From an uncultured Actinomycetota bacterium (GTDB lineage Bacteria; Actinomycetota; Nitriliruptoria; Euzebyales; Egibacteraceae): a DNA stretch of 55,033 bases. Shown here piece by piece: positions 10,052-54,066 of this stretch; the stretch's first letter is position 1; each line of letters begins with the position of its first letter. Location: positions 1-55,033 of the forward strand of contig CAZVUW010000009.1 of NCBI GenBank assembly GCA_964629825.1, in the 5' to 3' direction. The translations under genes and the position numbers were made by a program. The notes below the pieces were generated by a model. The model worked only from the letters and a program-made list of their open reading frames with translations. It did no database searches and was not told where the DNA came from.

Positions 10052-10060
10052 CGTCCCGGC

Positions 10061-11994: not shown

Positions 11995-12046
11995 CCTCAG
12001 GGTAGGGCGAGGCCGCGTCGGCGACCACAGGCTCCGGGCGACCCGC

Positions 12047-13387: not shown

Positions 13388-13463
13388 CGCCGCCGACGCT
13401 ACCGCACGGACCCGTCGGCGCGACGGCCCAGGAAGCGGCGCGCCGGGCTCAGCAGCAAGCGGC

Positions 13464-14909
13464 CTACAGCCGCCGCGTCAGGACGACCCAGACCGTCCGC
13501 AGCAGGATCTGGAGGTCCAGCACCGCGGACCAGTTCACCAGGTACTGGATGTCGTGGCCGAGCTTGTACTCGGGGTCCGTGTGATAGCGGCCGTGCACCT
13601 GGGCCAGGCCGGTGATGCCCGGCGGGACCTCGTGCCGGCGGCCGTAACCGGGGATCAGGACCTCGAAGCGGTCGGCCAGCTCGGGCCGCTCCGGGCGGGG
13701 TCCGACGATGGACATCTCGCCGGCGAGGACGTTCCACAGCTGCGGCAGCTCGTCCAGGCGCATGGCCCGCACCCAGCGCAGGGCCGGGATGACGCGCGGG
13801 TCGTCGCGCTCGGACAGGACCGCACCGGTCTCGGCCTCGGCGTCGGCGATCATCGTGCGGAACTTGACGATCGTGAAGCGCTTGCCGTCCTGGCCGACGC
13901 GCTCTTGGCGGTACAGCACCGGGCTGCCGGCCACGACGCGCACGTACAGGGCGAGCAGGGCGATGAGCGGCACCGCCACCGGGGCCATCGCCACCAGCAG
14001 GACGAGGTCGAGCACCCGCTTCAGCCGCAGCTGCGAGCGCGGCATCACGTGCGAGTACAGCGCCACCACCGGCATCCCGGCCATCTCGCGGACGTTCTGG
14101 AGGCCGAGCAGGCTGTCGCGGGCGGTCACCACCTGGAGCAGCCCGATGCCGCGCTGCTCCAGGCTGGTCAGCGGCTCCGGATAGATGTCGGGCAGCAGGC
14201 GGCTGGACAGCACCAGGATGTCCGTGGCACCGGTGGCCTCGACGCGCTGGAGGAGGTCCTCGACGTCCGCCGCCTCGCCGGCGATGACCCAGTCCTGGAC
14301 CGAGTCGAGGTGCTTGCGGGCCAGGTTCACCTCGTCGGGAGCGCCGACGAGGAGCAGCCGCGGCAGGCCCTCGCGGCGGACGCGCAGCCAGCGCGCCACC
14401 CGCCGGTTGGCGGCCACCGCGAACGAGCCGACCACGAACAGCACGGCGAGGTTGATGCGCGGCATCAGGTAGCGACCGGTGACCAGGGCAGCGCCACCGC
14501 AGATCAGCACCGCCAGGCCGACCAGGGCCATGATCCGCGGCAGGCGCGGGCGCGAGCCCAGGCCGACCTCGCGCTCGTACAGGCCGCCGAAGTAGAAGAC
14601 CGCGATGCACACCGCCGTGGCCATCGCGAAGCCGACCATGTAGTGGCTCAGCGGGTAGGTGGGCCACCTCAGCCCGAAGCGGGCCAGGTTGATCAGCACC
14701 ATCGACGAGAACAGCGCCAGCGCGTCCGCGGGCTGGAGGAGCCGGATGCCGCGCGCGTTCAGGCGCGAGAGCAGGGGCGGGCGGACCTCCGGCAAGGGCC
14801 GGGAGTCCGGCGTGGTGGTTGCCTGCAGCTCCTCGTGCACTCTCTCGCGCGATCGTCGGCGACGTTGCGGCGTGCGGTCGTTCAATGATGCCTCATGCTC
14901 TTCGCTCAC
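13464..14909 (-). CDS. Polyprenyl-phosphate sugar-1-phosphate transferase (bacterial sugar transferase, WbaP/CpsE-like initiating enzyme)
   Basis: It has N-terminal TM segments and a linker domain. The C-terminal catalytic motifs are KRVLDLV..., RVGQDGKRFTIVKFRTM, DELPQLWNVLAGEMSIVGPRPERP and PGITGLAQV. I trimmed the 1058-aa track ORF to GTG 14909, which overlaps the upstream gene stop (GTGA). Confidence 0.85.
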   Translation of the reverse strand: MSEEHEASLNDRTPQRRRRSRERVHEELQATTTPDSRPLPEVRPPLLSRLNARGIRLLQPADALALFSSMVLINLARFGLRWPTYPLSHYMVGFAMATAVCIAVFYFGGLYEREVGLGSRPRLPRIMALVGLAVLICGGAALVTGRYLMPRINLAVLFVVGSFAVAANRRVARWLRVRREGLPRLLLVGAPDEVNLARKHLDSVQDWVIAGEAADVEDLLQRVEATGATDILVLSSRLLPDIYPEPLTSLEQRGIGLLQVVTARDSLLGLQNVREMAGMPVVALYSHVMPRSQLRLKRVLDLVLLVAMAPVAVPLIALLALYVRVVAGSPVLYRQERVGQDGKRFTIVKFRTMIADAEAETGAVLSERDDPRVIPALRWVRAMRLDELPQLWNVLAGEMSIVGPRPERPELADRFEVLIPGYGRRHEVPPGITGLAQVHGRYHTDPEYKLGHDIQYLVNWSAVLDLQILLRTVWVVLTRRL

Positions 14910-16873
14910 GGCAGGATCCCGCGGAGCAGCTCGGCCCAGCGGGAGGCCTCGACCGCGGCGTCGAACCGGCGCGCCGTCTCCAGCCCCGCCTCCGCCAGGC
15001 GTCCGGCGAGCGCGCGATCCTCCAGCAACGTCAGGGCCGCGGCGGCCACGGCCTGCGGGTCCGTCGGCTCGGCGGTGAGGCAGTTCACGCCGTCCTCGGC
15101 GTACTCCGCGATTCCGCCGTGGGGGGTGAGCACCGCGGGGGTGCCGCAGGCCATCGCCTCGAGCCCCGGGCGGCCGAAGCCCTGCCAGGTCGAGGCGTCC
15201 ACCAGCACCGCGGCCGAGCTCAGCAGCTCCGCCACCTCCTCCTGCTGAAGGCGTCCGCGGTGGTCGTGCTCGAGCCCCTCGATGGGCGGAAAGCGGTGCC
15301 CGAAGAACGTCGGCAGAGCGTCGGGCCGCGCGGCCGTCACCAGTCGCAGCGCCGCGACCGTGCCGTCGAAGTTGCGGTGGGCCACCCCTGGCCGGGCGGC
15401 CGAGACGACCAGCGGGCGCGCCGGCGCCACCACCGCGCGCGGCCGGAAGACGTCGAGATCCAGGCCGAGGGGGATGCGGTGGACCTCTCCTCCGGCGGCG
15501 GCCTCGACCCGCTCGGCCAGCCAGCGGCTCTTGACCACCTTGTGCTCGATGGCGGACAGCGCGGCGGCCGCTGCGGCCTGCTCCTCGCTGCCGTCCTCCA
15601 GCTGGGCGAGCTCGTCGTCCTGGACGAAGGCCAGCGGCGTCGCGCGCCAGCGCTCCGCGAGCTCCAGCGCAAGCGGCCAGGTGTCCCAGCGGGTCCCGAC
15701 CACCACCCCCGCCGGCGGCAGGCCCTCGAGCAGCGCCGCGGTGGACCCGAAGGTCCGCAGAGGAGCGATCGAGAGCTCGTCCAGCGCCCAGCTGTCGGCG
15801 GGCGCATCGGCTGCGACGGCCGCCTGGAAGCCCGACAGGCACAGGCGATCCGCGATCTGCAGGACGGACAGGACCCCGCCGTAGGCGCCGAGCCCCGGCA
15901 GCAGGAACAGCGCCGACGCCACCCCCGGCCGAGGGGGCCTGCTCGGTGCCTCCGTGCGGCCCTGACGCCAGCGGGGCGGCTGCTCGGCGGTCGTTGTCGG
16001 TGCGGGGCGGCGCTGTCCCGAGCGGGTCCGCAGCAGCCGGGCGGCGGCCCTGCTGACCGGCGCCCTTCGCCGCAGCGGCCCGGCTCCGAGCAGGCGGTCC
16101 AGCGGCTCCCCCAGCCGCGCCAGCGCACCGCCCTCGTCGGGCGTGCGCGGCGGCGCCGGGGTGGCGTCGACGCTCCAGCGCAGGCTGCGAGCGACCTCGA
16201 ACGGCAGGTCGACGACGTCGCGCTCCAGCGCCTCGAGCGACTCGGTGGCGCGCTGCCAGGACCGCTGCAGCGGACGCGGAACGTGCACCCAGGTCGAGTC
16301 GTCGAGCACCGTCGGAACACGTCCGGCGGCCAGGCTCAGCTCGGGCCAGCCCGCGCTCTCCCAGCCGCCCGCTGCGGCGGCCAGAGCCTCCAGCGCCTCG
16401 ACCGTCCCGGCCACCACGGGCGAGTCCAGGCGCGTCAGCGGTGGCCGCAGGCGCTCGGCGCGACGCCGCACCAGGGCCGCGAGCTGCTCGGGCTCCCAGC
16501 CGTCGGGCAGCTCCAGGTGCAGCCGGCGGGAGGCGTCGCTGAGCGGCTGGGCCAACCCGGCGTCGGCGGCCTCGAGCAGGCTCTCGAACGCCTCGGCCGC
16601 CGGCGCGGCAGGCACGGCCAGCAGCAGCGCGGCCGAGCACTCCAGCGCCGACAGCCCGCGCGCCAGCGCGGCGCCGACGGGACCGTCCGGCGCGGGCAGC
16701 ACCTGCGCCTCGAGCTCGAGCTCGTACAGAACTCGGGCGGCCACTGCGGCGTCGGCCGGCGGCACCAGCACCGCCAGGTCGACGTCCTCGGCGCGCGGCC
16801 AGCGAGCGAGGCCGAAGCGCAGCAGCCGGAGGGAGCGCCCCGCCAGAACCACCGCTCCGATCCGGCCGACCAC
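14906..16873 (-). CDS. Glycosyltransferase family 4/1-like protein with ~330-aa N-terminal domain of unknown function
   Basis: GTG 16873 lies 6 nt after GGAGGGA. The C-terminal GT-B motifs are FFGHRFP..., LVDASTWQGFGRPGLEAMACGTPAVLTPHGGIAEY. I do not recognise the N-terminal half. Confidence 0.65.
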   Translation of the reverse strand: MVGRIGAVVLAGRSLRLLRFGLARWPRAEDVDLAVLVPPADAAVAARVLYELELEAQVLPAPDGPVGAALARGLSALECSAALLLAVPAAPAAEAFESLLEAADAGLAQPLSDASRRLHLELPDGWEPEQLAALVRRRAERLRPPLTRLDSPVVAGTVEALEALAAAAGGWESAGWPELSLAAGRVPTVLDDSTWVHVPRPLQRSWQRATESLEALERDVVDLPFEVARSLRWSVDATPAPPRTPDEGGALARLGEPLDRLLGAGPLRRRAPVSRAAARLLRTRSGQRRPAPTTTAEQPPRWRQGRTEAPSRPPRPGVASALFLLPGLGAYGGVLSVLQIADRLCLSGFQAAVAADAPADSWALDELSIAPLRTFGSTAALLEGLPPAGVVVGTRWDTWPLALELAERWRATPLAFVQDDELAQLEDGSEEQAAAAAALSAIEHKVVKSRWLAERVEAAAGGEVHRIPLGLDLDVFRPRAVVAPARPLVVSAARPGVAHRNFDGTVAALRLVTAARPDALPTFFGHRFPPIEGLEHDHRGRLQQEEVAELLSSAAVLVDASTWQGFGRPGLEAMACGTPAVLTPHGGIAEYAEDGVNCLTAEPTDPQAVAAAALTLLEDRALAGRLAEAGLETARRFDAAVEASRWAELLRGILP

Positions 16874-39742: not shown

Positions 39743-39915
39743 CCGTCCAAGCGTCGAACCGTCCTCAAAACGACCAGGCGGTCTTGAAGGGGCACCCCGA
39801 CCGTGTAGGTTGCGCGTGCTCGCCTACGCGGAGGCGGGCTGCAGTAGCGGGCTGTAAGGACGGCGGGGGACGACAGACGGGCCTCGCCCTTGCACGGAGG
39901 CTCAAGTTGCCCAGG

Positions 39916-42900
39916 ATGGTCGCGCGCAGCACCCGTTCCCTGTCCCTGCTCCTCAGCCTACTCATGGTGAGCGTGCTGGTCGACCCGAGCCTGGCGGCGA
40001 CGGGGGAACGGGGGCGGACCTACACCACCGACGCGGACTTCGACGAAGGCTCGTCCGTCAACGTCGTCACCAGCGTCCCCGATCAGCTCCAGCTCGACGA
40101 CGAGGTGCGGGCGTTCGACTTCCTGTGGGTCGCGGTCTCGACCAAGGGCACGATCGTCAAGATCGACACCCGCACAGGCGAGGTGCTCGGCGAGTACCGC
40201 ACCGCCCCGCAGGGGCAGCCGACGGACCCGTCGCGCACGACCGTGGACAAGAACGGCAGCGTCTGGGCGACCAACCGGGCGGGCAACAGCGTCGTGCACG
40301 TGGGGCTGGTCGAGAACGGCCAGTGCGTCGACCGCAACGGCAACGGCGTCATCGACACCTCCACGGGTCTGGGCGACGTGCGCGCCTGGGACAACGCCGG
40401 CGGGGCGAACACGAACGGGGGCGTCTCGACCGCGCTGGACGAGTGCCTCCTCCACTACGTCCGGGTCTCCTCGTCAGGCACCCGGCACGTGTCTGTCACC
40501 GCCGACAACGACGTCTGGGTCAGCGGCACGGGCGGACGCCACTTTGATCTGATCGACGGCGCCAGCGGGGAGATCGTCCGCCGCGAGCAGTCGGTCGGCT
40601 ATGGCGGCTACGGCGGGCTCATCGACCCGAGCGGGGTCATCTGGTCGTCTCGGCCGCTGCTGCGCTGGGACACGGCCAACCCGCTGACCGGTCCCAACGG
40701 CGGGAACTGGCGCGGCTACTCGCATGACAGCTATGGCCTGTGCATCGACCCCGAGGGCAACGTCTGGAACACCGAGTACGGCAGCCGCATCCACAAGTTC
40801 GCGCCCGACGGCACGCTGATCGGCACCTACAACCACGGCGGCTCGCTGGCTCAGGGCTGCGTGGCCGACCGCGACGGCCACATCTGGGTCGCCCACTCCC
40901 TCAGCGGCAACACGGTCGGCCACCTGCGCAACGACGGCACCCACCTGGGCAACGTGACCGTCGGCAGCGGGCCGACCGGCGTCGCCGTCGACGGTGCCGG
41001 CAAGATCTGGGCCACGAACTACAGCAGCCGCACCGTCTCCCGGATCGACCCGGACGCCGGCCCGATCGGCACGGACGGCCAGACCCGGGTCGGCGCCGTC
41101 GACTTCACCAGCGTCGACCTGGGCGGCAACCTCTACAACTACAGCGACATGACCGGCAGCACGCTGGCCGGCGCGCCCGACACCGGCACCTGGTCGGTCG
41201 TCTACGACAGCGGTGTGGACGCGGCGCAGTGGGGCCGTGTCGCCTGGACCGCCCAGGTCCCGGGCGACGGATCGCTGACGGTGACCGCGGCCAGCAGCGA
41301 GAACGGCAGCACCTTCTCCGCGCCGGTCGACGCCACCAGCGGCGGCCTCATCGACGTGCCCGACGGGCGCTACCTGCGCGTCACCGTGTCCTTCAAGCGC
41401 TCCAGCGACGGCGACAGCCCGGTCCTCAACGACCTGACCGTCCGCACCGGCACGGCCCCGCTCGAGTGCGAGACCCAGCCGGGCGGCATCGCACCCTCCG
41501 ACGTCGCCTTCGTGCTCGACGAGTCCGGCTCGATGTCCTCGAACGACCCGCAGCGCATCCGCGTCAGCGCCAGCACGGCCTTCGTCGACCGCTTCGTGGA
41601 GGGCGACCGCGCCGCCGTCATCGGCTTCGAGTCCAGCGCACGGGTCATCCTCGGCCTGTCCTCGGACGTCGACGCGATCAAGGCGGCCCTCAACCAGACC
41701 CGCGCATCCGGCGGCACCGACATCTCCAGCGGCGTCCGCGCGGGCCTGGACGAGCTCGCCAAGGATGCCCAGCCGGGCCGCCCCCAGTTCCTGCTGCTCC
41801 TGTCCGACGGCGCCGGCAGCTACAGCCACACCCTGACCGACCGCGCCGCCGCCGAGGGCGTGACCATCTACACCGTCGGCCTGGGCCCGTCCGTGCCCGA
41901 GGCGCTGCTCACGGAGATCGCCGAGCGCACCGGCGGCCGCTACTTCCCGGCGGCCCGGGCCGACGAGCTGCCGGACCTGTTCCAGGAGATCCGGGACGAG
42001 ACGGAGATCATCCTGTGCGGCGGCCCGACCGCCGAGGCCGGCGGGCCCTACGCGGTGCCGGAGGGCGGCGCCGTGATCCTCTTCGGCTCGGCCGACCCGG
42101 GCGACGACACGCGCCCGCTGACCTTCGCCTGGGATCTCGACAGCGACGGCGACTTCGAGACCGACGGCCCGCTCGCCCGCTTCGACGCGACCGACCTCGA
42201 CGGACCCGCCGAGGTCGAGGTCGCGCTCCAGGTCTGCGACGCCGACGAGCTCTGCGACGTCGACACCGCCACGGTCGAGGTTCGCAACGTGCGGCCCGAG
42301 GTCGATGCCGGACCCGATCTCGTCGTCACGGTGGGCGACACCGCGCTGCTCGACGGGCGCTTCAGCGACCCTGCCGGGGACGACGACGCCCCCTACGAGA
42401 CGATCTGGACCCTCGACGGCGAGGAGACCGCCGGCACCGCCGACCACGGCGACCCCGTCCGCCGCAGCGTCTCCTTCGACAGCCCGCAGAGCCATCTGGC
42501 CGAGGTGACGGTCACCGACGCCGACGGGGCGACCGGCCGCGACACCGCGCGGGTGAGCGCCGTGGCCATCGATCCGGACTGCTCCGGTGCCGGACCGACC
42601 ATCGCGCAGCTGTGGCCACCGAACCACAAGCTCCACAACGTTGCGATCACCGGCGTCGAGGCGCCGGACGGTGCGGACGTCGCCATCGTCATCACCGGCA
42701 TCCGCCAGGACGAGCCCGTCAACAGCACCGGCGACGGGAACACCGCGCCGGACGCCTTCGGCGTGGGCACCTCGACCGCCAGCCTGCGCGCCGAGCGCGC
42801 CGGTCCGCAGGACAGCCGCTTCTATCACATCTTCTACGAGGCCCGGACGTCCGAGGGCGGCATGTGCGCCGGCTCGGTCAGCGTGATGGTGCCGCACGAC

Positions 42901-45900
42901 CGCTCCCCCAACGCGGTCCACGTCGACGGCGGTCCCATCTACGACTCCACCGCTGGCAGCGACCCCGAACCCGGCACGCCGGTCGCGCTGGACGGCCACC
43001 ACCGGGTCACCAACGGCGCGACCCTGACCGTCGACGCGCCCGGCGTGCTCGCCCCGCACCTCACCCCGGACTCGGAGGACGTCGTCGCCGAGCTGGTCGA
43101 GGGGCCCGATGCGGGCGAGCTCGACCTGCGCCCGGACGGCTCGTTCACCTACACCGCCCCCGACGCGCCGGGCGATGTGCGCTTCACCTACCGCGCCCGC
43201 TCGGGCGACCGGGTCTCGGCGACGGGCACGGTGACCATCCGGGTGACCGCCGCCACCGCGGCCCTGCACGCACCCGACCGCGAGCTGTGGACCAGCGAGG
43301 ACACGCCCGTCAGCGCGACCCTCACGGCCCGCGGCAGCGGCGCGGAGGACGCGGTGTTCGCCATCGTCGACGGCCCGGCCTCGGGGACGGTGGAGCTCGA
43401 CGGAGACGTCCTCACCTACAAGCCCGCGCGCGACTTCACCGGCGGGGACGAGCTCACCTACTCGGCGACGTCCGGGGGCGTCCAGTCCGTCGGAACCGTC
43501 CGTATGACGGTGCTGGCCTCCAACGACACCCCGGTCGCCGAGACCGTCGCGGCCGCCGTCCCCGAGGACGGCACGGCGCTGATCGACGTCCTCTCGGCGG
43601 CCTCCGACGCCGATGGCGACGCCCTCGAGGTCGTGGAGGTCACCGCCCCGGCCCACGGCACCGCTGAGGTCGTCGACGGGCAGATCCGCTACGAGCCCGA
43701 GGCCGACTACAACGGCCCCGACACCTTCCGCTACCGCGTGCAGGATCCCGACGGCGCCTTCGCCGCGGCCGCCGTGCTGGTCGATGTGACCGAGGAGAAC
43801 GACCCGCCGCTGGCCGCCGACCTCGACTACTCGACCTCCTGGGACGAAGCCCTGTCGATCCCGGTTGCCGAGGTCGTCGCAGCCGGCCGCCCGGGTCCGG
43901 CCGACGAGGAGGGCCAGGCGCTCACCCTGACCACCGTCACGGCGACCGCCGACACCAACGGGAGGGTGACCCTCGACGGCGACGTCATCACCTACACACC
44001 GGACAGCGACTTCAGCGGCCGCGCGAGCTTCCGCTACGAGCTCTGCGACGACGGCACGAGCGCCGGCGAGCCCGACCCGCGCTGCGCGCACGGCACGATC
44101 ACCGTCGACGTCGTCCGGACCAACCGTCCACCGGTCGCCCATGACGCCGCGGTGACAACGGCGGAGGACACCCCCGTCGAGATCACCCTGCGCGCCACCG
44201 ACGCCAACGACGACCCGCTGACCTATCGGATCGTCACGGGTCCTGCCCACGGGAACCTCACCGGCACGCCGCCGACGCTCACCTACACCCCCGCGACCGG
44301 GTTCAGCGGCACGGACACCTTCACGTTCGCCGCCCACGACGGGCAGGCCGAGAGCTCCCCGGCGACGGTCACCATCACCGTGACCGAGGTGAACTCGCCA
44401 CCGGTGCCCGCCCCCGACCACTTCGCGATCGACGCCGGTGAGATCCTCACCGTCCCTGCCGCCGACCTCACCGCCAACGACGTGCCAGGCCCGCCACATG
44501 AGGCGCACCAGAGCCTCACCGTCACGCGGCTGATCGCGACCTCGGACACGTTCGGCGCTTTGTCTCTGGCCGACGGTGTCGTGACCTACACGCCCGAGCC
44601 CGGCTACAGCGGCACGGCGAGCTTCCGCTACGAGGTCTGCGACGACGGCACCACCGCCGGTCAGCCCGACCCGCTGTGCGCCGAGGGCACCGTCACGGTG
44701 GACGTCGCCGTCATCAACACCCCGCCGACGGCGGCCCCCGTCGTGGCAAGCACCGACGAGGACACGCCGGTCGTGATCACCCTGACCGGCCGCGATGACG
44801 ACGGCGACGCGCTGACCTTCGCGATCGTCGAGGGGCCGCAGAACGGCGCCCTCGGAGCGCTTTCGGCGGTGATCTGCGAGCAGGACGGGAGCGCCTCCGT
44901 CTGCTCGGCCACCGTCACCTACACCCCCGACCCGGACGTTGCGACGATCGACGTCTTCCGCTTCGCGGTTCGGGACGGCCGCGCCACCGTGGAGGCGACC
45001 GCCTCGGTCTACATCGAGCCGGTCAACGACGCCCCGACCGCCGACGCCACCCCGAACCCGCTGGTCCTGGCCGAGGACACCCAGGCCGGCGTGACCCTCA
45101 CGGGGGCGGACATCGAGACGCCACCGGCGGCCCTGGTGGTCGAGATCACGGCGCTCCCCGACCGCGGAGAGCTGCGCCACGACGGGCGCGCCCTCGAGGT
45201 CGGCGACCGCATCACCGGCGTGCCCGTTGACGTCTCCTACGTACCCGACCCGGACGCGAACGGCTCCGACGGGTTCACCTTCCGCGTGCACGACGACGGA
45301 CAGGCCCTCAGCCCGCCGCTGCACGCCGAGCAGGCCGTGACCGTCAGCATCACCCCGGTGAACGACCCGCCGGTCCCCGGCACGTTCAGGGCCTCAGCCA
45401 CCCAGGGGCAGCCGCTGGAGATCCCGGCCGCCGACGTCGCCGCCACCGCCTCCCCCGGCCCCGCCGACGAGGCCGGGCAGGCCCTGGTGATCACGAACGT
45501 GCGCGCCGTTGACGACACGCACGGCACCGTGGTGCTCGCGGGCGGCGTCATCACCTACACGCCCGACGGCGACCACTCGGGCCCGGCGTCGTTCGCGTAC
45601 ACGATCTGCGACGACGGCACAACCGGCGGCCAGCCCGATCCCCGGTGCGCCGAGGGCGTCGTTTCCCTGACCGTCGCCGAAGAGGGCCCCGACCTCGCAC
45701 CGCCGATCGTCGAGGTCGAGGACGTGACCGTGACCGCGGGCACCACCGCGATCGTGACGGTGACCGCCACCGACAACCGCGGCGTCGCGTCCCTGGAGCT
45801 GACCGTGGACGGCACGTCCGTGCCGCTCGACGACGCCGGCCGCGCCCAGGTCCCAACCTCTTCGCCCGGTGTTCAGCAGCTCGTCGCGACCGCGACGGAC

Positions 45901-48900
45901 GCCGCCGGCAACGTCGGGACGGCGATGGGCAAGGTCGTGGCCCTCGGCTCGGATGACGGCGTCGCGCCGGCGGCTGCGATCACCGCGCCGATCGACGGCA
46001 AGGAGCTGAGCGAGCCGACAACGGTCGTCGGCACGGCGACCGACGCCCGCCTCAGCCACTGGCAGCTGACGGCGACGCCGGTGTCGCCGGCCGACTCCGC
46101 TCCGATCGTGCTCGCGGAGGGCACCGAGCCCATCGCTGACGGCGCCCTCGGCACCTTCGATCCGACGACCCTCACCGGCGGGCAGTACCGGCTCCGCCTT
46201 GACGTCTGGGACCTCGGTGGACGGGGAGCCCGCGCCGAGGTCGTGGTCATCGCCGACAACGAGACGCCCTACGGGCAGTTCTCGATGACATTCACGGACG
46301 CGGTCCTGCCCCTCGGCAACTTCCCCGTCACGGTGCAGCGCACCTACTCGTCGGGCAGCCGGGCGATCTCGGGCGACTTCGGCTACGGCTGGCGGCTGGG
46401 CCTCCAGTCGCTGAAGCTGGAGGTCGACCGCGAGCCGGGCGACGGCTGGCGGGCGGAGAACCGCGGCACGATCATCCCGAACTGGGTGCTGATCCCGACG
46501 AAGCCGCACACCGTCACGATCGTCGACGACAACCGCGACTCGATCATCTTCGAGTTCACGCCGACGTTCATCAGCCCGATCCTCCCGAACTACGCGACCG
46601 CCGCGTTCACGGAGCGGACCAACAAGGGCGCGACGCTGACGCCGCTGGACGCCACCGACCTGTTCTTCAGCGGCGACCAGCTCTACGGCTTCGACACCAT
46701 CGAGACCTACCACCCGCAGGCCTATCAGCTGACGCTCCGCGACGGCCGCCGGTACACCTTCCACCTGGAGCGCGGCCTGACGGAGTACCGCGACGCGAAC
46801 GGTGAGCGGCTGAGCATCACCGCGTCGGGGATCACGTCATCGCGCGGGCCCGGCGTCACCTTCGCCCGCGACAGCGAGGGCCGCATCACCAGCGTGACCA
46901 CGCCGGGCGGGCTCGTGACCCGCTACGGCTACGACGCCGCCGGCAACCTCGCCGAGGTCATCGACCCCGAGGGCAACCGGACCACCTTCGCCTACGACCG
47001 CCGGCACTTGCTGATCGGCGTGGTTGACGCGCTCGGTCGGGTGCCGATGCGCACCGAGTTCGATGAGAACGGCCGCATCGTCGCCATCGTCGACTCGAGC
47101 GGGCGCCGCACCGAGCTCTCCTCCGATCCCGACGCTCGAGAGGAGACGATCTCCGACCGGCTCGGGAACGTGACCGTCCGCAGCTACGACGAGGACGGCA
47201 ACGTCCTCAAGGAGATCCACCCGGACGGGGCGGTCGAGACCTTCACCTACGACGCCGACGGCAACCAGACCTCGCGCACCGACGGGCTGGGCCGCACCAC
47301 CACCTACACCTACGACCAGCGCGGCAACCGCACCAGCCAGACCGATGAGCTGGGCAACACGACCACCTACACCTACGACGAGGACGACAACCTCATCGCG
47401 ATGGTCGACCCGCTCGACGAGGTGACCACGTTCACCTACGACGGCAACGGCAACCGGACGTCGGTCACCTACCCCGACGGCACCACCGAGAGCTGGACGT
47501 ACGACAGCCGCGGCAACCTCCTCACCGAGACCGACGCAACCGGCGCCGTCACCCGCCACACCTACGACTCGCAGGGCCGGCGCATCTCGACCGTCCTGCC
47601 CGGAGGGGCCGAGCGCGTCACGACCTACGACGCCGACGGGCGCCGCGCGTCCCAGACCGGCCCGAGCGGCACCGAGACCTTCGGCTATGACGGCCTCGGC
47701 AACATCACGACCCACCACGATCCGCTCGGCGGCCAGACCCTGAACACCTACGACCCGCTGGGCCGGCGCACCGAGCAGGTCGACCCGCTCGGCGGCATCC
47801 GGACCAAGACCTACGACGAGCACGGCAACGTCGTGGCCGAGACCGACGCGACCGGCGCCGTCACCCGTCACACCTACGACGCCGAGGGCCGCAAGCTCTC
47901 GACCACGGACCCTGACGGCACCGTCCACTCCTTCACCTACGACCGCCGCGGCCGCGAGATCGCCCGCAGAGTCGACGGCGTGATCGTCGAGGAGCGGACC
48001 TACGACGCGGCCGGCCAGATCACCTCCATCACCGACGCCGCCGGTGCTGTCACCCGCTATGAGTACGACCGCGCCGGGCGGCTCGTGCGGACGATCTTCC
48101 CCGACGGGTCGGCAGAGGAGCTGACCCTGGACGGCGCCGGCAACGTGCTGGAGCGCACGACGCCGGACGGCACGACCACGTTCACCTACGACGAGCGGGG
48201 CCGGATGCGCTCGCGGACGGTGCCCGGCCGCGGCACGACCACCTACGACTACGACGCCGACGGCCGTCTCAAGGAGGAGATCGGACCCGACGGCCGCAAG
48301 ACCACCTACACGTACGGCGCCGACCACCGGCTCGCCTCGGTCACCGACGGGCTCGGGGGCGTCACCACGTTCAGCTACGACGGCGACGGCCGGCTGACGT
48401 CCGTGACCGACCCGCTCGGTCGCACAACGACCTACCAGCACGACGCCCGGGGCCACCTCACGGAGCGCTCCGTCGAGGGTCAGGTGCTCGAGCGCTACAC
48501 CGCGGACGCGATGGGGCGGATCCTGACCCGCACCGACGCGGACGGCCGTGTGACCAGCTACGAGCACGACGGTGAGGGCCACCTCGTCGCCATCGACCAC
48601 GCCGACGGGCGCACGACCCGCATCGACTACACCGACGGGGGGCGACGGGACACGGTCACGGATGCCCGCGGCGTCACCTCCTACGGCTACGACACGGCCG
48701 GACGGCTCGTCCAGGTCACCGCGCCCGAAGGCACGGTGTCCTACGCCTACCGACCGGACGGCAACCTGGCCAGCCGGACCGACCCGGGCGGCACGACCGC
48801 TTACGAGTACGACGACCTCGGCCGGCTGACGGCCGTCGTCGACCCGTCCGGCGGTCGCTACACGATCGGCTACGACAGCGCCGGCCGACCCAGCACGCTC

Positions 48901-50505
48901 ACGTACCCGAACGGCGTGATCTCGACCACGACCTTCGACGACGCGGGAGCCGCCGCGAGCCGGACCATCACGGGCTCCGGTGGCCAGGTGCTCGCCTCCT
49001 TCGGCGTCACCCGCGACGCCGGCGGCCGCCTCACCGGGGTCGAGGAGACCGGTCCCGGCCTGGGCGCACCGCGCTCCCGCGCTTACGCCTACGACGCCGC
49101 GGGCCGCCTCACCGGCGCGACGGTCACCCGTGACGGCACGGTCGTCACCGACGAGAGCTACACGCTCGACGCCTTCGGCAACCGCACGGCGGTCACCTCA
49201 GGCGGTACCACCCAGACCGCGACGTTCGACGCCCTCGACCGCATCACGACGCTCGGGGACACGACCTACACCCACGACGCCTCAGGACGCCGCATCCGGG
49301 CCGAGGGCCCCGATGGCGCCACGTCCTACGCCTATGACAGCGATCACCGGCTGATCCGGGTCGGCAAGCCCGACGGCACTGTGGTCGAGCACGCCTACGA
49401 CGTCGACGGCAACCGCGTTGCCACCACGGTCGCAGGCCAGCGCACCGAGTACGTGCTGGACATCGCGGCCGAGCTGCCACAGGTCGCCGCCGAGACCGAC
49501 GGTCGGGGCACCGTCACCGCGACCTACGTCTACATCGCGGGCCGCCTCGTCGCCATGCGGCGCGGCGGGGTGACCACCTACGTCCACGATGACCACGGCG
49601 GCAACATCCGCCTGCTCACGGACGCCACCGGCGCGGTCACCGACACCTTCGACTACGGGCCCTTCGGGACGCTCGAGAGCCGCACCGGCACGACCCCGCT
49701 GCCGTACGGCTACCGCGGGCAGCGCTACGACGAGTCAACCGGGCTGTACTACCTGCACGCCCGCTACTACGACCCGGTCTCGGCCCGCTTCCTGAGCCCG
49801 GACCCGCACCCGGGTGTGCTGCGGCGGCCGGCGTCGTTCAACCGCTACCTGTACGCCAACGGCGATCCCGTGAACATGTGGGATCCCAACGGCCAGATGG
49901 GCCTCGCCGTGGCGGTGGGCGGCTTCCCCGTCCAGGCCACGCTCGCCGGCATATCCGTGCCGTCGCTGGTCGGGGTCCTCGCCACCGTCTACGTCCTGCT
50001 GCTCATCTCCGGGGTGGTCGGGCCGGCTCTGGTCAGCACCTCCGGCTTGACGATCGGCCAGACGATCGCCAACAGCCAGGCTGCGCAGCGCAGGCTGGAG
50101 CTCGAGTGGGAGAAGCTCGCCGCGGCCATCGCCGCCGCGTCGGCGGCCGCGGCCTGCGGTGTGCCGCTGTTCCACTACACGAGCTACATGGGCGCGCGGG
50201 GCATCTTGGCCGATCAGGCGATCTTCGCCACCCCGACGTTCCGCTCCCCGTGGGGCACGCACCCGTCCGGGGCGTACGCGACCACGATCTGGCCGATCGG
50301 CCCGACGACCCGCTCCCAGCTCCAGGATCTCTACAAGATGGGGGACCGCAACTGGGACGTCTCCTGGTACGTCATGCTGTGCCACAACCAGAACCCGACG
50401 TTCATCCCGTCCGGCTATGGCCAGGAGTGGTACGCGCCGGCGCCGCCGGGTTGGCCCGTGCCGGTGCGCGTGTGGACGATCGGACCGAACCTGATGCTCC
50501 CGTGA
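39916..50505 (+). CDS. Giant secreted RHS-repeat polymorphic toxin (signal peptide, NHL/Vgb-like propeller, vWA, PKD-like, nine cadherin/Ig-like repeats, RHS cage, variable C-terminal toxin)
   Basis: The Sec signal is MVARSTRSLSLLLSLLMVSVLVDPSLAA. Propeller blades show D.(D/N)G.(V/I)W motifs. The vWA MIDAS is DESGS at 41518-41532. Dozens of YD repeats (TYTYD..GN, YDA.GR) span 46279-49896. The RHS core is PYGYRGQRYDESTGLYYLHARYYDPVSARFLSPDP ... NMWDPNGQ. The start could be further upstream (track 39784), but ATG 39916 gives a clean signal peptide. Confidence 0.9.
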   Translation: MVARSTRSLSLLLSLLMVSVLVDPSLAATGERGRTYTTDADFDEGSSVNVVTSVPDQLQLDDEVRAFDFLWVAVSTKGTIVKIDTRTGEVLGEYRTAPQGQPTDPSRTTVDKNGSVWATNRAGNSVVHVGLVENGQCVDRNGNGVIDTSTGLGDVRAWDNAGGANTNGGVSTALDECLLHYVRVSSSGTRHVSVTADNDVWVSGTGGRHFDLIDGASGEIVRREQSVGYGGYGGLIDPSGVIWSSRPLLRWDTANPLTGPNGGNWRGYSHDSYGLCIDPEGNVWNTEYGSRIHKFAPDGTLIGTYNHGGSLAQGCVADRDGHIWVAHSLSGNTVGHLRNDGTHLGNVTVGSGPTGVAVDGAGKIWATNYSSRTVSRIDPDAGPIGTDGQTRVGAVDFTSVDLGGNLYNYSDMTGSTLAGAPDTGTWSVVYDSGVDAAQWGRVAWTAQVPGDGSLTVTAASSENGSTFSAPVDATSGGLIDVPDGRYLRVTVSFKRSSDGDSPVLNDLTVRTGTAPLECETQPGGIAPSDVAFVLDESGSMSSNDPQRIRVSASTAFVDRFVEGDRAAVIGFESSARVILGLSSDVDAIKAALNQTRASGGTDISSGVRAGLDELAKDAQPGRPQFLLLLSDGAGSYSHTLTDRAAAEGVTIYTVGLGPSVPEALLTEIAERTGGRYFPAARADELPDLFQEIRDETEIILCGGPTAEAGGPYAVPEGGAVILFGSADPGDDTRPLTFAWDLDSDGDFETDGPLARFDATDLDGPAEVEVALQVCDADELCDVDTATVEVRNVRPEVDAGPDLVVTVGDTALLDGRFSDPAGDDDAPYETIWTLDGEETAGTADHGDPVRRSVSFDSPQSHLAEVTVTDADGATGRDTARVSAVAIDPDCSGAGPTIAQLWPPNHKLHNVAITGVEAPDGADVAIVITGIRQDEPVNSTGDGNTAPDAFGVGTSTASLRAERAGPQDSRFYHIFYEARTSEGGMCAGSVSVMVPHDRSPNAVHVDGGPIYDSTAGSDPEPGTPVALDGHHRVTNGATLTVDAPGVLAPHLTPDSEDVVAELVEGPDAGELDLRPDGSFTYTAPDAPGDVRFTYRARSGDRVSATGTVTIRVTAATAALHAPDRELWTSEDTPVSATLTARGSGAEDAVFAIVDGPASGTVELDGDVLTYKPARDFTGGDELTYSATSGGVQSVGTVRMTVLASNDTPVAETVAAAVPEDGTALIDVLSAASDADGDALEVVEVTAPAHGTAEVVDGQIRYEPEADYNGPDTFRYRVQDPDGAFAAAAVLVDVTEENDPPLAADLDYSTSWDEALSIPVAEVVAAGRPGPADEEGQALTLTTVTATADTNGRVTLDGDVITYTPDSDFSGRASFRYELCDDGTSAGEPDPRCAHGTITVDVVRTNRPPVAHDAAVTTAEDTPVEITLRATDANDDPLTYRIVTGPAHGNLTGTPPTLTYTPATGFSGTDTFTFAAHDGQAESSPATVTITVTEVNSPPVPAPDHFAIDAGEILTVPAADLTANDVPGPPHEAHQSLTVTRLIATSDTFGALSLADGVVTYTPEPGYSGTASFRYEVCDDGTTAGQPDPLCAEGTVTVDVAVINTPPTAAPVVASTDEDTPVVITLTGRDDDGDALTFAIVEGPQNGALGALSAVICEQDGSASVCSATVTYTPDPDVATIDVFRFAVRDGRATVEATASVYIEPVNDAPTADATPNPLVLAEDTQAGVTLTGADIETPPAALVVEITALPDRGELRHDGRALEVGDRITGVPVDVSYVPDPDANGSDGFTFRVHDDGQALSPPLHAEQAVTVSITPVNDPPVPGTFRASATQGQPLEIPAADVAATASPGPADEAGQALVITNVRAVDDTHGTVVLAGGVITYTPDGDHSGPASFAYTICDDGTTGGQPDPRCAEGVVSLTVAEEGPDLAPPIVEVEDVTVTAGTTAIVTVTATDNRGVASLELTVDGTSVPLDDAGRAQVPTSSPGVQQLVATATDAAGNVGTAMGKVVALGSDDGVAPAAAITAPIDGKELSEPTTVVGTATDARLSHWQLTATPVSPADSAPIVLAEGTEPIADGALGTFDPTTLTGGQYRLRLDVWDLGGRGARAEVVVIADNETPYGQFSMTFTDAVLPLGNFPVTVQRTYSSGSRAISGDFGYGWRLGLQSLKLEVDREPGDGWRAENRGTIIPNWVLIPTKPHTVTIVDDNRDSIIFEFTPTFISPILPNYATAAFTERTNKGATLTPLDATDLFFSGDQLYGFDTIETYHPQAYQLTLRDGRRYTFHLERGLTEYRDANGERLSITASGITSSRGPGVTFARDSEGRITSVTTPGGLVTRYGYDAAGNLAEVIDPEGNRTTFAYDRRHLLIGVVDALGRVPMRTEFDENGRIVAIVDSSGRRTELSSDPDAREETISDRLGNVTVRSYDEDGNVLKEIHPDGAVETFTYDADGNQTSRTDGLGRTTTYTYDQRGNRTSQTDELGNTTTYTYDEDDNLIAMVDPLDEVTTFTYDGNGNRTSVTYPDGTTESWTYDSRGNLLTETDATGAVTRHTYDSQGRRISTVLPGGAERVTTYDADGRRASQTGPSGTETFGYDGLGNITTHHDPLGGQTLNTYDPLGRRTEQVDPLGGIRTKTYDEHGNVVAETDATGAVTRHTYDAEGRKLSTTDPDGTVHSFTYDRRGREIARRVDGVIVEERTYDAAGQITSITDAAGAVTRYEYDRAGRLVRTIFPDGSAEELTLDGAGNVLERTTPDGTTTFTYDERGRMRSRTVPGRGTTTYDYDADGRLKEEIGPDGRKTTYTYGADHRLASVTDGLGGVTTFSYDGDGRLTSVTDPLGRTTTYQHDARGHLTERSVEGQVLERYTADAMGRILTRTDADGRVTSYEHDGEGHLVAIDHADGRTTRIDYTDGGRRDTVTDARGVTSYGYDTAGRLVQVTAPEGTVSYAYRPDGNLASRTDPGGTTAYEYDDLGRLTAVVDPSGGRYTIGYDSAGRPSTLTYPNGVISTTTFDDAGAAASRTITGSGGQVLASFGVTRDAGGRLTGVEETGPGLGAPRSRAYAYDAAGRLTGATVTRDGTVVTDESYTLDAFGNRTAVTSGGTTQTATFDALDRITTLGDTTYTHDASGRRIRAEGPDGATSYAYDSDHRLIRVGKPDGTVVEHAYDVDGNRVATTVAGQRTEYVLDIAAELPQVAAETDGRGTVTATYVYIAGRLVAMRRGGVTTYVHDDHGGNIRLLTDATGAVTDTFDYGPFGTLESRTGTTPLPYGYRGQRYDESTGLYYLHARYYDPVSARFLSPDPHPGVLRRPASFNRYLYANGDPVNMWDPNGQMGLAVAVGGFPVQATLAGISVPSLVGVLATVYVLLLISGVVGPALVSTSGLTIGQTIANSQAAQRRLELEWEKLAAAIAAASAAAACGVPLFHYTSYMGARGILADQAIFATPTFRSPWGTHPSGAYATTIWPIGPTTRSQLQDLYKMGDRNWDVSWYVMLCHNQNPTFIPSGYGQEWYAPAPPGWPVPVRVWTIGPNLMLP

Positions 50506-51575
50506 GGCTCGAGCGCTCGGGCTCGCTCCCCCGCATCGGGGGGGTCACCGGTGCGCTGTCCGTCGGCGAGCACGTCGTCGTGACGTGCTCGCGCGGGACC
50601 GAGCGCTGGGCCGTCGGCCTGCGCCGCGACGGCGCCGGCTGGGCGCAGGCCTGGTCGCACGACCTGGTCGGCGACGCCTCCTACCCGTGGAGGGGCCACG
50701 GCATCTGGCTGGACCGCGGCGGGGCCGTCGGCCTGCCCGGCGGCCGGGTGGCCCTGGTCGGTGGCCGTGAGCGCCTGGTCGTGACCGCGGACGGCCGGGT
50801 CGAGACCCGTGCCGAGGGCGTGGCCGCGAGCGCTCCGCCCGCGCTGGTCGACGGCCTGCTGCTCATCCCGGAGCGCGCCGAGCTCGCCGCCTACGACCCG
50901 GACGACCTGACCGAGCGCTGGCGGCGCCCCACCCCGTGGGCCGCGCTGGTCTGCACGTCAGCGGTCGGCGACGTGGTGGGGATCAGCCACCACGACCGCG
51001 ACCCGGCCGAGAGCCACCTGTGGTGGTACGGGGCCGGCGCCACCGCCGCGCTGGGCTTCGAGGCGCTGTGGCATGCGCCGCTGCCCGTGCCGCTGCCCCT
51101 CGACGGGGCCGCGGTCGCCGCGGGACGCTCGGCCGCCGTAGTGGCCGAGGGCAGCTCGGCGGCGACGGTGGTGACGGCCGTCGGACCGGAGGGCCAGGAG
51201 CTCTGGCGGATTCCACGCGGCGCGCCGGCCTTCCCCCAGGCGCCGCGTCCGGCGCTGACGGGGCAGCTCCTTCCCGGCGACGGAGTGGTCTGGTGCGCCG
51301 TCGCCGAGCCGGCAGTGCTGGCCATCGACCCGGTGGACGGCGCCGTGCGCGCCGACGTGCCCCTGCCGGCCGACGCCACGGCGATGGCGCTGACCGGCGA
51401 CGCGCTGTGGGTGGGCACCGCCGACGGCGAGGTGCTCCAGATCGAGGACGCCGAGGTCGTCGCCCGCGCCGTCTTCGACCCCGGCGGTGCCGAGCGGCTG
51501 TCCCTGCTGCTACCGCTCGGCCCGGGGCTGCTCGGGATCGGCTCGCTCGGCTCCCTTGTCGAGATCAGCGCCTGA
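50502..51575 (+). CDS. Cytoplasmic beta-propeller-like (PQQ/BamB-type repeat) protein; candidate cognate immunity protein
   Basis: GTG 50502 overlaps the toxin stop (GTGA). There is no signal peptide. Repeated strand-turn motifs are LVVTADGRVE, LAAYDPDDLTERWRR, GQELWRIP, VLAIDPVDGAVRADV and ALWVGTADGEVLQI. I trimmed the 565-aa track ORF. Confidence 0.65.
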   Translation: MRLERSGSLPRIGGVTGALSVGEHVVVTCSRGTERWAVGLRRDGAGWAQAWSHDLVGDASYPWRGHGIWLDRGGAVGLPGGRVALVGGRERLVVTADGRVETRAEGVAASAPPALVDGLLLIPERAELAAYDPDDLTERWRRPTPWAALVCTSAVGDVVGISHHDRDPAESHLWWYGAGATAALGFEALWHAPLPVPLPLDGAAVAAGRSAAVVAEGSSAATVVTAVGPEGQELWRIPRGAPAFPQAPRPALTGQLLPGDGVVWCAVAEPAVLAIDPVDGAVRADVPLPADATAMALTGDALWVGTADGEVLQIEDAEVVARAVFDPGGAERLSLLLPLGPGLLGIGSLGSLVEISA

Positions 51576-51602: not shown

Positions 51603-53660
51603 TCAGCTGGCGGGCACGGCGGCGGCCAGGCGGTCCTCGACCGGGTTGGTCACCGCGCCGCCTCCTCCGACGATCCGCGGGCGGGCGCCGCGCGGGAGCA
51701 CGTCGCGCAGGAACGAGACCGTGCCGGTCACGGCGGCGGGCTCACGCCCGGGCGCCAGGATGAGGATGCCGTTGGTGGCCGCGGCGGCGGGCCCGGCGGC
51801 CAGCGCGTCCGGCCAGTCCTGACCGGTGGCGATCCAGGTGCTGGCGGGCTCGGCGCCGTCGGCGATCGCTCGCCGCGCGACCTCGACAGAGGTCGAGTAG
51901 CGCGTGTTCCCGGAGACCCGCTCGACGTTGCCGCTGCCGCCGACGGCGGAGGCGATCTGGCGCTGGACCGCGCTGGAGACTGCCCCGGTTCCGCCGACGA
52001 TCGTCGCGCTGCGAGCGCGCAGCTCGGTCAGCGCTGCCCCGGTGCCCGGCGGGACGACATCGCGGGTGACCAGCAGGATCGGGCGCTGCTGGCGGGCCGC
52101 CAGCGCGGACACCGAGACGGCGTCCGGCCAGCCCCGCGCCGGGTTCGACGACGCGCCCTCGACCACGTAGACGTCGCGTCCGCCGACCTCTGCCGCGATC
52201 CGCCGCGCGGTCTCGAAGCGGTCCGAGCCGGACAGCCGACGCACCTGCTGGACCGACGGCCGCGCCCGGAGCTCCTGGATGACACGGTTGCTGACGGCCG
52301 CCTCGCCACCGAGGACCACGACCTCCCGGACGCCGAGGCGGTCGATCTCGGCGGCCACCGCCGAGTCGAGGCGGTCGCGCAGGGTCAGCAGCAGCGGCGC
52401 GCCCAGCTTCTGCGCCAGGGGCGCCCCGGCGAGGGCATCGGGATAGGCGTCGGCGCGGGCGATGAGCGCCACCCGGCTGCTGCCGCGGGCATGGACCTCG
52501 CTGCTGAGAGCGACCGACGTGCCCATACGGGTCGAGCCCGAGACGCGTTCGACCCTGGCGCGGTGGCCGTAGGCAAGGGCGTGCCCGGCCGTTGGGGCGA
52601 AGCCGCTGCACCCGCTGATCGCGCTGTAGCGGGGATCCGACCCGAACCGGTTCCCGCCCCCGTCCACGATCCCGCTCGGCGCCGGACGAGTGCTGAGCGG
52701 CAGCGTGTTGAAGATGAACCTGGCCGCCCACCACGCGACGTTGTCACGCGCGACGACCGTGGAGCCCCTGACCCCGTGCCCGCGCAGGTTGCCGTACTCG
52801 GACGGCTTGGAGGTGACCTTGCCGAAGATGTTGCGCTCGATCACGACGTCGTGGACGTCGTGCTCGACCAGGAGGTTCTGACCGGCGTCGAACATGGTGT
52901 TGTAGCGGACGGTCACGTTGCCGGCCGAGGGCGACGTCGAGGTCGCGCCGCTGCCCAGCTTCAGGTTGGTGCCGTTGGGCGCGCGGAACAGCAGGTTGCG
53001 CTCGATCAGCCCCGGCCCGGAGCCGACGCCGCTCTGCACGTAGATGTTGTGGTTGCGCTCGGTCGTGCTGCTGGTCGCACGGGTGTCGTAGACGCAGTTG
53101 CCGGTGACCGCCCAGTCCCGCGGCACACCGGACTCGGTGGACACGCCGACGTACACGCCGGCGTCGGCATGGGCGCCCGACACGCGGTTGTTCGCGAAGA
53201 CCCAGCCCCGACCGCCCATCAGCTTGACCAGGGGCTCCTTGGAGCTGCCGTTGGGCGGCCAGCGGATGTCGAAGCCCTCGAAGGTCCACCAGCTGGCGCT
53301 GCGGATGTGCCACTGCCCGATCACGACCGGCCGCTCCCCCGGCCAGCCGGCGACGCGGATCCGAGCCGACGGCGAGGTGCGCCGGCTGTCGTAGATGACG
53401 CTCGTCAGGTTCTCGGTGTAGGTGCCGGCTCGCACCAGCAGCGTCTGGCCGGGCTGCACCTGTCGCAGGCCGTGGCCGAGCGTGCGCCAGGGGCGCTGCT
53501 CGGTGCCGGGGTTGCCGTCGTCGCCGTTCGGTGCGACGACTCGGGTCGCCTGCCCCGGCTGGGCGTGGGCGGCCGGCACGCCGACGTCGGTCAGGGCGAT
53601 GAGAACGGCCGCGATGAGCAGCAGAAGGCGGAAGCCGCGGGACTGCACGGAGCTGTACAT
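51603..53660 (-). CDS. Secreted right-handed beta-helix protein with three C-terminal CWB2 cell-wall-binding repeats
   Basis: The signal peptide is FRLLLLIAAVLIALTDVGVPAAHA. The beta-helix N-cap is VAPNGDDGNPGTEQRPWRTLGHGL ... LLVRAGTY. The three CWB2 units are RVSGSTRMGTSVALS...YPDALAGAPLA, RLSGSDRFETARRIA...WPDAVSVSALA and RVSGNTRYSTSVEVA...WPDALAAGPAA. I trimmed the track ORF to ATG 53660. Confidence 0.8.
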   Translation of the reverse strand: MYSSVQSRGFRLLLLIAAVLIALTDVGVPAAHAQPGQATRVVAPNGDDGNPGTEQRPWRTLGHGLRQVQPGQTLLVRAGTYTENLTSVIYDSRRTSPSARIRVAGWPGERPVVIGQWHIRSASWWTFEGFDIRWPPNGSSKEPLVKLMGGRGWVFANNRVSGAHADAGVYVGVSTESGVPRDWAVTGNCVYDTRATSSTTERNHNIYVQSGVGSGPGLIERNLLFRAPNGTNLKLGSGATSTSPSAGNVTVRYNTMFDAGQNLLVEHDVHDVVIERNIFGKVTSKPSEYGNLRGHGVRGSTVVARDNVAWWAARFIFNTLPLSTRPAPSGIVDGGGNRFGSDPRYSAISGCSGFAPTAGHALAYGHRARVERVSGSTRMGTSVALSSEVHARGSSRVALIARADAYPDALAGAPLAQKLGAPLLLTLRDRLDSAVAAEIDRLGVREVVVLGGEAAVSNRVIQELRARPSVQQVRRLSGSDRFETARRIAAEVGGRDVYVVEGASSNPARGWPDAVSVSALAARQQRPILLVTRDVVPPGTGAALTELRARSATIVGGTGAVSSAVQRQIASAVGGSGNVERVSGNTRYSTSVEVARRAIADGAEPASTWIATGQDWPDALAAGPAAAATNGILILAPGREPAAVTGTVSFLRDVLPRGARPRIVGGGGAVTNPVEDRLAAAVPAS

Positions 53661-53727
53661 GGAGACCTCGTCACAAACCGGACGCCTTGGGTCTGCGGCC
53701 TCCCCATGGCCATGGGGCCGCAAACCG

Positions 53728-54066
53728 TCAGGGCGCGCCAGACTGCCGACGGCTGCTCCTGAGGGCAAGGCGCAGCGCCGCGGCGGCGATCGCCGACGTG
53801 ACGATCGCCGCCAGCCACAGCGAGGGCCCGCGCTCCCCCACGCCCCAGCCGGTCATCCACCACAGCAGCAGGGCGACCGCTGCGGCGGCGGCTGCGACCA
53901 GGAGCAGACCCAGCCTGCGAAGGCGCTCGTCGGCGCCGATCGCCACCGCCGCACCCACGGCTCCGAGCCACACCGGCGCCGCGAAGTAGGTGCCCATGGC
54001 GCCACGGACCAGGAAGCCGATCGCGAGCCCGGCCAGGAGCACCCCCAGGGCTACGACGCTTTTCAT
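53728..54066 (-). CDS. Small hydrophobic membrane protein (about 4 TM segments)
   Basis: ATGA overlap with the upstream GT2 gene. The sequence is hydrophobic and Ala/Leu/Gly-rich. The function is unknown. Confidence 0.5.
   Translation of the reverse strand: MKSVVALGVLLAGLAIGFLVRGAMGTYFAAPVWLGAVGAAVAIGADERLRRLGLLLVAAAAAAVALLLWWMTGWGVGERGPSLWLAAIVTSAIAAAALRLALRSSRRQSGAP

Follow-up and report, generated by a model that had tools for sequence, protein, structure and literature searches.

The window analysed here (the whole stretch of 55,033 nucleotides from an uncultured Actinomycetota bacterium; G+C content of 71.6%) carries an RHS polymorphic toxin gene (39907..50505, + strand) that is followed directly by a gene (50502..51575, + strand) for a predicted cytoplasmic beta-propeller of the BamB/PQQ type, 357 amino acids (aa) in length and probably eight-bladed. 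The second gene is the candidate immunity gene of this report, and its assignment draws on the G+C content of third codon positions (GC3), the family to which the protein belongs, an AlphaFold2 (AF2) model, Foldseek matches and synteny. With a probability of about 0.78, as judged from sequence and gene context, its product is the cognate immunity protein of the C-terminal (CT) toxin domain of the RHS protein. The immunity reading is based on the linkage of the propeller as next gene to one CT domain, the coupled junction between the two genes, the independence of this linkage from the protein that carries the CT domain, and the occurrence of the propeller both in the immunity slot of orphan arrays and as orphan copies, which together form the usual genomic hallmark of cognate immunity genes in polymorphic toxin systems (PMC3482391).

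The toxin-candidate junction

The longest open reading frame (ORF) of the RHS gene spans 39784-50505 (+; 3573 aa), with 3532 aa read from the called start, and ends in a TGA stop codon at 50503-50505. The candidate gene begins with a GTG at 50502-50504 and closes with a TGA that ends at 51575. The tetranucleotide GTGA (50502..50505, +) is therefore shared by the candidate start and the toxin stop, as the preliminary description had claimed, and is the counterpart of the ATGA found at eight other overlapping junctions among the 11 that were read. A promoter/terminator scan revealed no promoter-like or terminator-like site between toxin and candidate. The next gene (51603-53768, − strand) encodes a protein with a CWB2 cell-wall-binding domain and a beta-helix; as this gene is convergent, the candidate is the only gene after the toxin and no orphan cassettes follow in the window, also in agreement with the earlier description.

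The reading frame of the candidate is clearly coding. The G+C fractions at codon positions 1, 2 and 3 are 0.81, 0.58 and 0.94, are uniform along the ORF and resemble those of the flanking genes (0.67, 0.54 and 0.95 in the RHS gene). An ORF that arose by chance in high-GC DNA was considered and is ruled out by the GC3 value, the existence of homologues and the confident fold. The start codon is indicated by the N-termini of the homologues, which align at the GTG of the GTGA in an alignment of 22 sequences (A1), and by the gene callers, which picked the identical start in six independent assemblies that are clearly of the same organism. The frame remains open for 208 codons 5' of this start (ORF 49878-51575), where it overlaps the toxin CT domain in another frame; because the homologue N-termini all align at the GTG, this upstream extension from 49878 is a high-GC artefact. 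A naive longest-ORF call at 49878-51575 would yield a spurious protein of 565 aa.

A rare family of BamB/PQQ-type propellers

The candidate includes the motifs AAYDPDDLTERW, ELWRIP and LWVGTADGEV that had been quoted in its preliminary description, which correspond to the repeat of tryptophan-docking type in PQQ-like propellers. No Pfam or NCBIfam model is matched by the window protein itself, which fails PQQ_2 (PF13360) even at E ≤ 1; thus, its assignment as a propeller is drawn from the homologues, the profile of the family and the AF2 model. Among the 22 family members, 21 match PQQ_2 at E ≤ 1e-3 and the window protein is the sole exception, while six homologues that were scored individually against PQQ_2 all exceed the gathering score (28-58 bits vs 27.6). 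The repeat signal of the window protein is probably masked by its Ala/Gly/Arg-rich, high-GC composition, which would account for the failure of PQQ_2 and for the lack of an annotation.

The family is small, rare and unannotated, and comprises about 20 clusters. A word-indexed search of 5.8 billion proteins with the window protein as query returned only the query itself, and the same type of search with the family profile returned mostly generic BamB/PQQ proteins together with two true members. When 1.84 billion cluster representatives were scanned exhaustively with HMMER, 46 matches were obtained at E ≤ 1e-3, of which about 20 are near-full-length family members (330-394 aa) and the remainder are generic PQQ/BamB propellers aligned only over residues ~250-320. 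Five residues (W51, R91, E124, W235 and G280) are invariant in the A1 alignment, and a (V/I)PEGQxLxAYD motif is conserved.

When compared to sequences of the PDB, the family profile matches BamB chains with E-values of ~1e-16 and PQQ-dependent dehydrogenases with E-values of 1e-11 to 1e-6. The AF2 model built with the A1 alignment is all-beta with 34 strands, has a mean predicted local distance difference test (pLDDT) score of 86.2 and a predicted TM-score (pTM) of 0.86, and is of low confidence only in the loop of residues 183-202; the AF2 model built from the single sequence was uninformative (pLDDT of 35). The best Foldseek match of the model in the PDB is BamB (3q7m; E-value of 7.6e-16, TM of 0.62 and ~15% sequence identity), followed by Fbw7/Cdc4, through their 8-bladed WD40 domains, and by Ika8, a designed 8-blade protein. 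No immunity protein is among the top 50 structural matches. The candidate is, thus, modelled as a BamB/PQQ-type beta-propeller that is probably eight-bladed, with the blade count taken from the number of strands and the structural matches. The call of a PQQ/BamB-type propeller that had been made from repeat motifs is borne out by the PQQ_2 matches of the homologues, the BamB profile match, the AF2 model and the Foldseek matches.

The candidate had further been described as a large protein with no signal peptide, and this holds for its 357 aa. The N-terminus is not hydrophobic (KD19 of at most 1.17 over the first 60 aa), residues 2-54 are modelled as propeller strands with pLDDT > 90, and no signal peptide or lipobox was found. 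In the absence of these signals the candidate, unlike BamB, is inferred to be cytoplasmic. An orthologue of BamB was considered separately and is ruled out by the missing signal peptide, the toxin-cassette context and the rarity of the family, with an identity of ~15%. A Pfam scan detected no ADP-ribosylglycohydrolase, macro or NADAR catalytic domain in the candidate, and no Pfam families other than propeller models match the partner proteins.

The CT domain and its linkage to the propeller

Related loci were gathered from homologues of the toxin (L007, L008, P0005 and L009) and of the propeller (L010 and L012-L019); one locus came from genomes scanned with the toxin alignment, and two (L012 and L013) came from metagenomes scanned with a sub-alignment of 10 sequences. 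In 13 of 15 independent loci, which range from 38 to 73% in G+C content, the same CT domain of ~115 aa is followed directly by the propeller gene, and the other two loci (L011 and L020) are orphans. The 13 linked loci are the window, L007, L008, the P0005 contig, L009, L010, L012-L017 and L018/L019, with the P0005 gene being a putative family member that is counted by its position (it has at least 159 aa and a 4-nucleotide overlap with the stop of the CT domain). An ATGA or GTGA overlap is observed at 9 of the 11 junctions read. The comparison that the preliminary description had proposed, of whether homologues of the propeller follow homologues of the same CT domain, thus came out in favor of linkage over a wide range of G+C content and taxonomy, usually with the 4-nucleotide overlap and behind any carrier; the immunity interpretation given there is supported by the counts of linked loci and overlapping junctions.

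The proteins that carry the CT domain are of several types. Full RHS proteins are found in the window, L017 (at least 1616 aa) and L010 (at least 960 aa), while RHS-core+CT orphans are found in L007, L015 (an RHS-core stub plus CT) and L016. In L007, the orphan is a 216-aa RHS-core+CT protein whose gene overlaps by 4 nucleotides that of a 358-aa family member (24% identity and an E-value of 2e-20 to the candidate). A 4-nucleotide overlap also joins an RHS-CT gene to a family member in L009, a metagenome-assembled genome of Lyngbya, and the gene downstream of the CT domain in L008 begins with MRLRRLGTLERAGVAEPGACL, the N-terminus of the family. In L014 (986-1960), the CT domain is at the end of a protein of 324 aa in which a signal peptide and an N-terminal domain of unrelated sequence take the place of an RHS, and the propeller of the family is still the next gene. 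The linkage, therefore, tracks the CT domain and not its carrier, and the persistence of the propeller behind the non-RHS carrier of L014 marks the CT domain as a mobile polymorphic module.

In the L016 locus (9156-16434), three orphan RHS-core+CT cassettes, each with a CT domain of its own, form a tandem array that sits among transposase and restriction-modification genes. The first cassette has the CT domain described here and is partnered by a propeller of 356 aa, whereas the other two have unrelated CT domains, and their partners are a HEAT_2-repeat protein of 167 aa and a protein of 110 aa. The L018/L019 locus has a divergent CT subtype in common with L012, and a SUKH-4 immunity gene and a PT-HINT toxin are its neighbours. 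Upstream of the toxin-propeller pair in L018 (1307-3004) are a PT-HINT toxin fragment, the SUKH-4 gene and a WD40-like fragment of 145 aa, which has a 4-nucleotide overlap with the stop of SUKH-4; this WD40-like fragment may represent a further protein of the propeller type that occupies an immunity slot.

The CT domain of the window (~115 aa; 50155..50502, +) has the motifs CGxPLFHYT, THPxGAY, LYKxG, GYxxE and GPNLMLP, as defined by the toxin alignments (A2, A4 and an alignment of 12 sequences), and has homologues in every related locus with 34-66% identity. Across the 12 sequences, the motifs (L/V)(F/Y)HY(T/S), PxG(A/F)Y and GxNxM are conserved together with an acidic residue. The His of the first motif and the Tyr of the second are invariant, while the acidic residue is Glu in 10 sequences and a shifted Asp in two. 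The codons of the putative H-Y-E/D triad in the window are those of His (50173-50175), Tyr (50275-50277) and Glu (50425-50427), all on the + strand. No curated family of Pfam or NCBIfam, including Tox-ART-HYD1 (PF15633), is matched by the window CT domain, and a comparison of the CT profile with PDB sequences gave only noise and no sequence relative. Two of eight CT members match Tox-ART-HYD1 weakly (best E-values of 0.002-0.005; 17.9 bits compared to a gathering score of 25). The immunity protein associated with Tox-ART-HYD1 is Imm-My6CBD (PMC3482391), and the partner in the linked loci is instead the propeller. The best guess for the CT toxin, weakly supported as it is, is a divergent H-Y-[D/E] ADP-ribosyltransferase (ART), based on the conserved motifs and acidic residue, the weak Tox-ART-HYD1 matches and the NADAR genes that adjoin some of the pairs.

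NADAR genes (PF08719; E-values of about 1e-42) lie directly after the toxin-propeller pair in two loci, L007 (1812-2258, − strand, convergent) and L012 (2045-2494, + strand, co-directional). The loci are unrelated, and the two NADAR proteins are 65% identical to each other. A tblastn search found no NADAR in the 55-kb window or in any other fetched locus. NADAR enzymes reverse the ADP-ribosylation of bases (PMC11543638, PMC11125620); thus, these neighbours hint that the CT toxin may ADP-ribosylate nucleic-acid bases and that some lineages may have added an enzymatic eraser. A fuller proposal would be that of a new module, in which a new H-Y-[D/E] ART clade modifies nucleic-acid bases and is neutralised by a dedicated family of full-size, cytoplasmic, BamB-like eight-bladed propellers, with immunity in some lineages being two-tiered (a stoichiometric blocker and an enzymatic eraser). 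Modification of bases by the toxin would explain the recurrent NADAR neighbour, yet the proposal as a whole is tentative and is viewed as doubtful.

Between the cleavage region of the RHS core and the toxin domain of the window is a transmembrane-like hydrophobic pre-toxin module followed by a helical Ala/Glu-rich linker (49903..50049, +; KD19 peak of 2.26). This segment comes after the DPxG of the RHS core, and the RHS-associated core itself is matched by TIGR03696 at 49750-49896. The hydrophobic module is conserved in L007, L009, L010, L013 and L015-L018 and is absent from L014, where the CT domain is on the non-RHS secreted protein. The module and linker may form an element for membrane translocation. 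The N-terminal part of the window RHS protein includes a signal peptide and Vgb_lyase-like, VWA, Big_9 and cadherin-like domains, which precede the RHS repeats (Pfam). With a Vgb_lyase-like propeller, VWA, Big_9 and cadherin-like repeats before the RHS cage, the protein is unusually large and composite for a Sec-signal-bearing toxin of the actinobacterial type.

Immunity, rival explanations and known systems

As a cognate immunity protein, the propeller would be expected to act as follows. The toxin and propeller genes would be made from one transcript, and ribosomes that finish the toxin would re-initiate on the propeller via the GTGA overlap. The propeller would remain in the cytoplasm, as it has no export signal, where it would bind the ~115-aa toxin domain one-to-one and block it. 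The propeller fold is a scaffold for protein binding, and a cytoplasmic protein of this fold could plausibly block a small enzyme in a stoichiometric manner. The likeliest block, as judged by analogy to known immunity proteins, would be one in which a face or a loop of the eight-bladed ring covers or plugs the active site. The toxin would reach the cytoplasm, its presumed site of action, from sister cells or by leakage, and its chemistry would probably be that of the divergent H-Y-[D/E] ART, for which the support is weak.

Several findings weigh against an immunity role. Typical immunity proteins are two to four times smaller than the candidate, and the CT domain is itself a predicted toxin. 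Two family members do not adjoin a toxin, though both are on short contigs: one is the closest relative of the candidate (L011 341-1333; 36% identity by tblastn), which follows a gene for a membrane protein, and the other (L020 382-1479) has tRNA-His and tRNA-Lys immediately before it and a gene for an asparagine synthase after it. Both are likely to be orphan immunity genes, and such orphan copies are frequent among immunity genes. In a mirror-tree comparison, the distance matrices of toxin and propeller were weakly correlated (r = 0.30) and the correlation was not significant (Mantel p ~0.07). In favor of immunity, the partner diverges faster than the toxin, with a mean pairwise identity of 31% among the propellers and 51% among the toxins. 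Co-inheritance of toxin and propeller is clear, while co-evolution of an interface is not demonstrated.

The strict linkage and coupled junction would be equally expected of an obligate helper, such as a chaperone, stabiliser or activator that serves the folding, loading or activity of the toxin and perhaps combines this service with immunity. The hydrophobic, transmembrane-like segment that precedes the CT domain in most carriers might need to be shielded by such a factor, and accessory roles of this type have been proposed for PefE with PefD and for Tli with the Enterobacter lipase Tle (bioRxiv 10.1101/2023.03.28.534661). However, the linkage persists in L014, where both the hydrophobic module and the RHS are missing, and in the L016 array the propeller fills a slot that is otherwise held by genes of the immunity type. 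The toxin-less copies of L011 and L020 also fit immunity and not a dedicated chaperone, and an accessory factor is considered unlikely. These same two copies, which are unlinked to toxins, are what would be expected if the propeller were a mere neighbour of the toxin with a cellular function of its own, for example in assembly, as in the case of BamB, or as an enzyme of the PQQ type; PQQ_2/BamB profiles match the family, and one source labels a member 'BamB'. A function unrelated to the toxin is nevertheless very improbable. The candidate has no lipoprotein or secretion signal and is from a high-GC host in which the neighbouring gene encodes a CWB2 cell-wall-binding domain, the family is rare (about 20 true members among 46 matches in 1.8 billion representatives), and its members, ~15% identical to BamB, are nearly always joined by ATGA to the same CT domain across phyla.

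The NADAR genes raise the prospect that protection is instead achieved by an ADP-ribosyl hydrolase that reverses the damage, with the propeller being secondary as a regulator or adaptor. The position of NADAR directly after the pair in L007 and L012, and the known reversal of base ADP-ribosylation by these enzymes, would be in keeping with such a role; by contrast, NADAR is absent from the window and from all other fetched loci, while each of the 13 toxin-bearing loci has the propeller. Protection of this kind as the main mechanism is the most remote of the explanations considered, and immunity conferred by the propeller itself is preferred.

If the propeller is the cognate immunity protein, the significance is that of a useful but incremental addition, in which a new toxin-immunity family and a correction of annotation are gained with no new principle. 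Small size is the norm for the immunity proteins of such toxins, which are usually recognised from where their genes lie and not from their fold. Here, a conserved cross-phylum family has a complete BamB/PQQ-type propeller as the dedicated partner of one toxin domain, which widens the scaffolds that annotation pipelines should accept as immunity genes, as members are now unnamed or labelled 'BamB'. The pair is tractable for structural work, as it would present a large rigid ring that inhibits an enzyme of ~115 aa. The pair also flags an unannotated and probably ART-like toxin domain, for which the occasional NADAR neighbour suggests a nucleic-acid target.

Compared to the generic cassettes of RHS and other polymorphic toxins (PMC3482391), the system shares the variable CT domain after the RHS core, the immunity gene immediately downstream, the orphan CT+immunity cassettes, the orphan immunity genes and the use of one CT domain on different delivery scaffolds. 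It differs in that the partner is a full 8-bladed propeller of 357 aa and in that neither the toxin nor the propeller family reaches the threshold of any curated Tox- or Imm- model. The pairs Tre1-Tri1 and TreX-TriX, from Rhs and other carriers of type VI secretion systems (T6SS), are similar in that a toxin with ART activity (putative here) is RHS-borne and is neutralised by a downstream partner that covers its active site, as is proposed here for the propeller. An enzymatic eraser comes in addition with Tri1 (PMC11606950), which is echoed here by the occasional NADAR neighbour. Tre1 and TreX are, however, ARTs of the R-S-E clade with small helical or ARH immunity proteins, whereas the toxin described here is at best H-Y-[D/E]-like and has a propeller as its partner. 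BamB and PQQ_2 (PF13360) provide the best structural match of the candidate (E-value of 7.6e-16, TM of 0.62) and the best profile match of the family (1e-16), and the candidate is set apart from them by the lack of a lipoprotein signal, the low identity of ~15%, a different genomic context and the failure of the window protein to match the Pfam model.

Beta-propeller domains were stated not to be found among immunity proteins in the survey of Zhang et al. 2012 (PMC3482391), and no immunity family of the BamB/PQQ type was found in the open-access literature. Propeller-like immunity proteins are nonetheless on record, all of which act with effectors of the T6SS or the type IV secretion system (T4SS). 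Tsi1 of the Pseudomonas aeruginosa T6SS, which is described as a 'fragmented' or partial propeller (PMC3391265), and X-Tfi XAC2610 of the Xanthomonas T4SS (PMC10933484) are, like the candidate is proposed to be, all-beta propeller-like stoichiometric inhibitors, and they insert a loop into the effector active site. When compared by description, these proteins are small periplasmic inhibitors of peptidoglycan hydrolases with a partial or fragmented propeller, whereas the candidate is predicted to be a complete cytoplasmic BamB/PQQ ring that is paired with an enzyme-like intracellular toxin. PefE, the immunity protein to the T6SS effector PefD of Proteus mirabilis, is genetically validated and is a predicted bladed beta-propeller with its specificity residues on one face (PMC5714391). 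The comparison, again by description, also reveals differences: PefD is a disulfide-rich PAAR effector, PefE is in addition needed for effector activity, and its fold is predicted by Phyre. The preliminary claim that the propeller would be a new immunity class is, thus, fair for this toxin family but does not extend to propellers in general, for which Tsi1, X-Tfi and PefE are precedents. The logic of the cassette is that of an ordinary RHS toxin-immunity pair; the novelty is in the previously undescribed immunity scaffold and the unannotated toxin domain, with a full-size cytoplasmic BamB-like propeller family being dedicated to one family of CT toxins.

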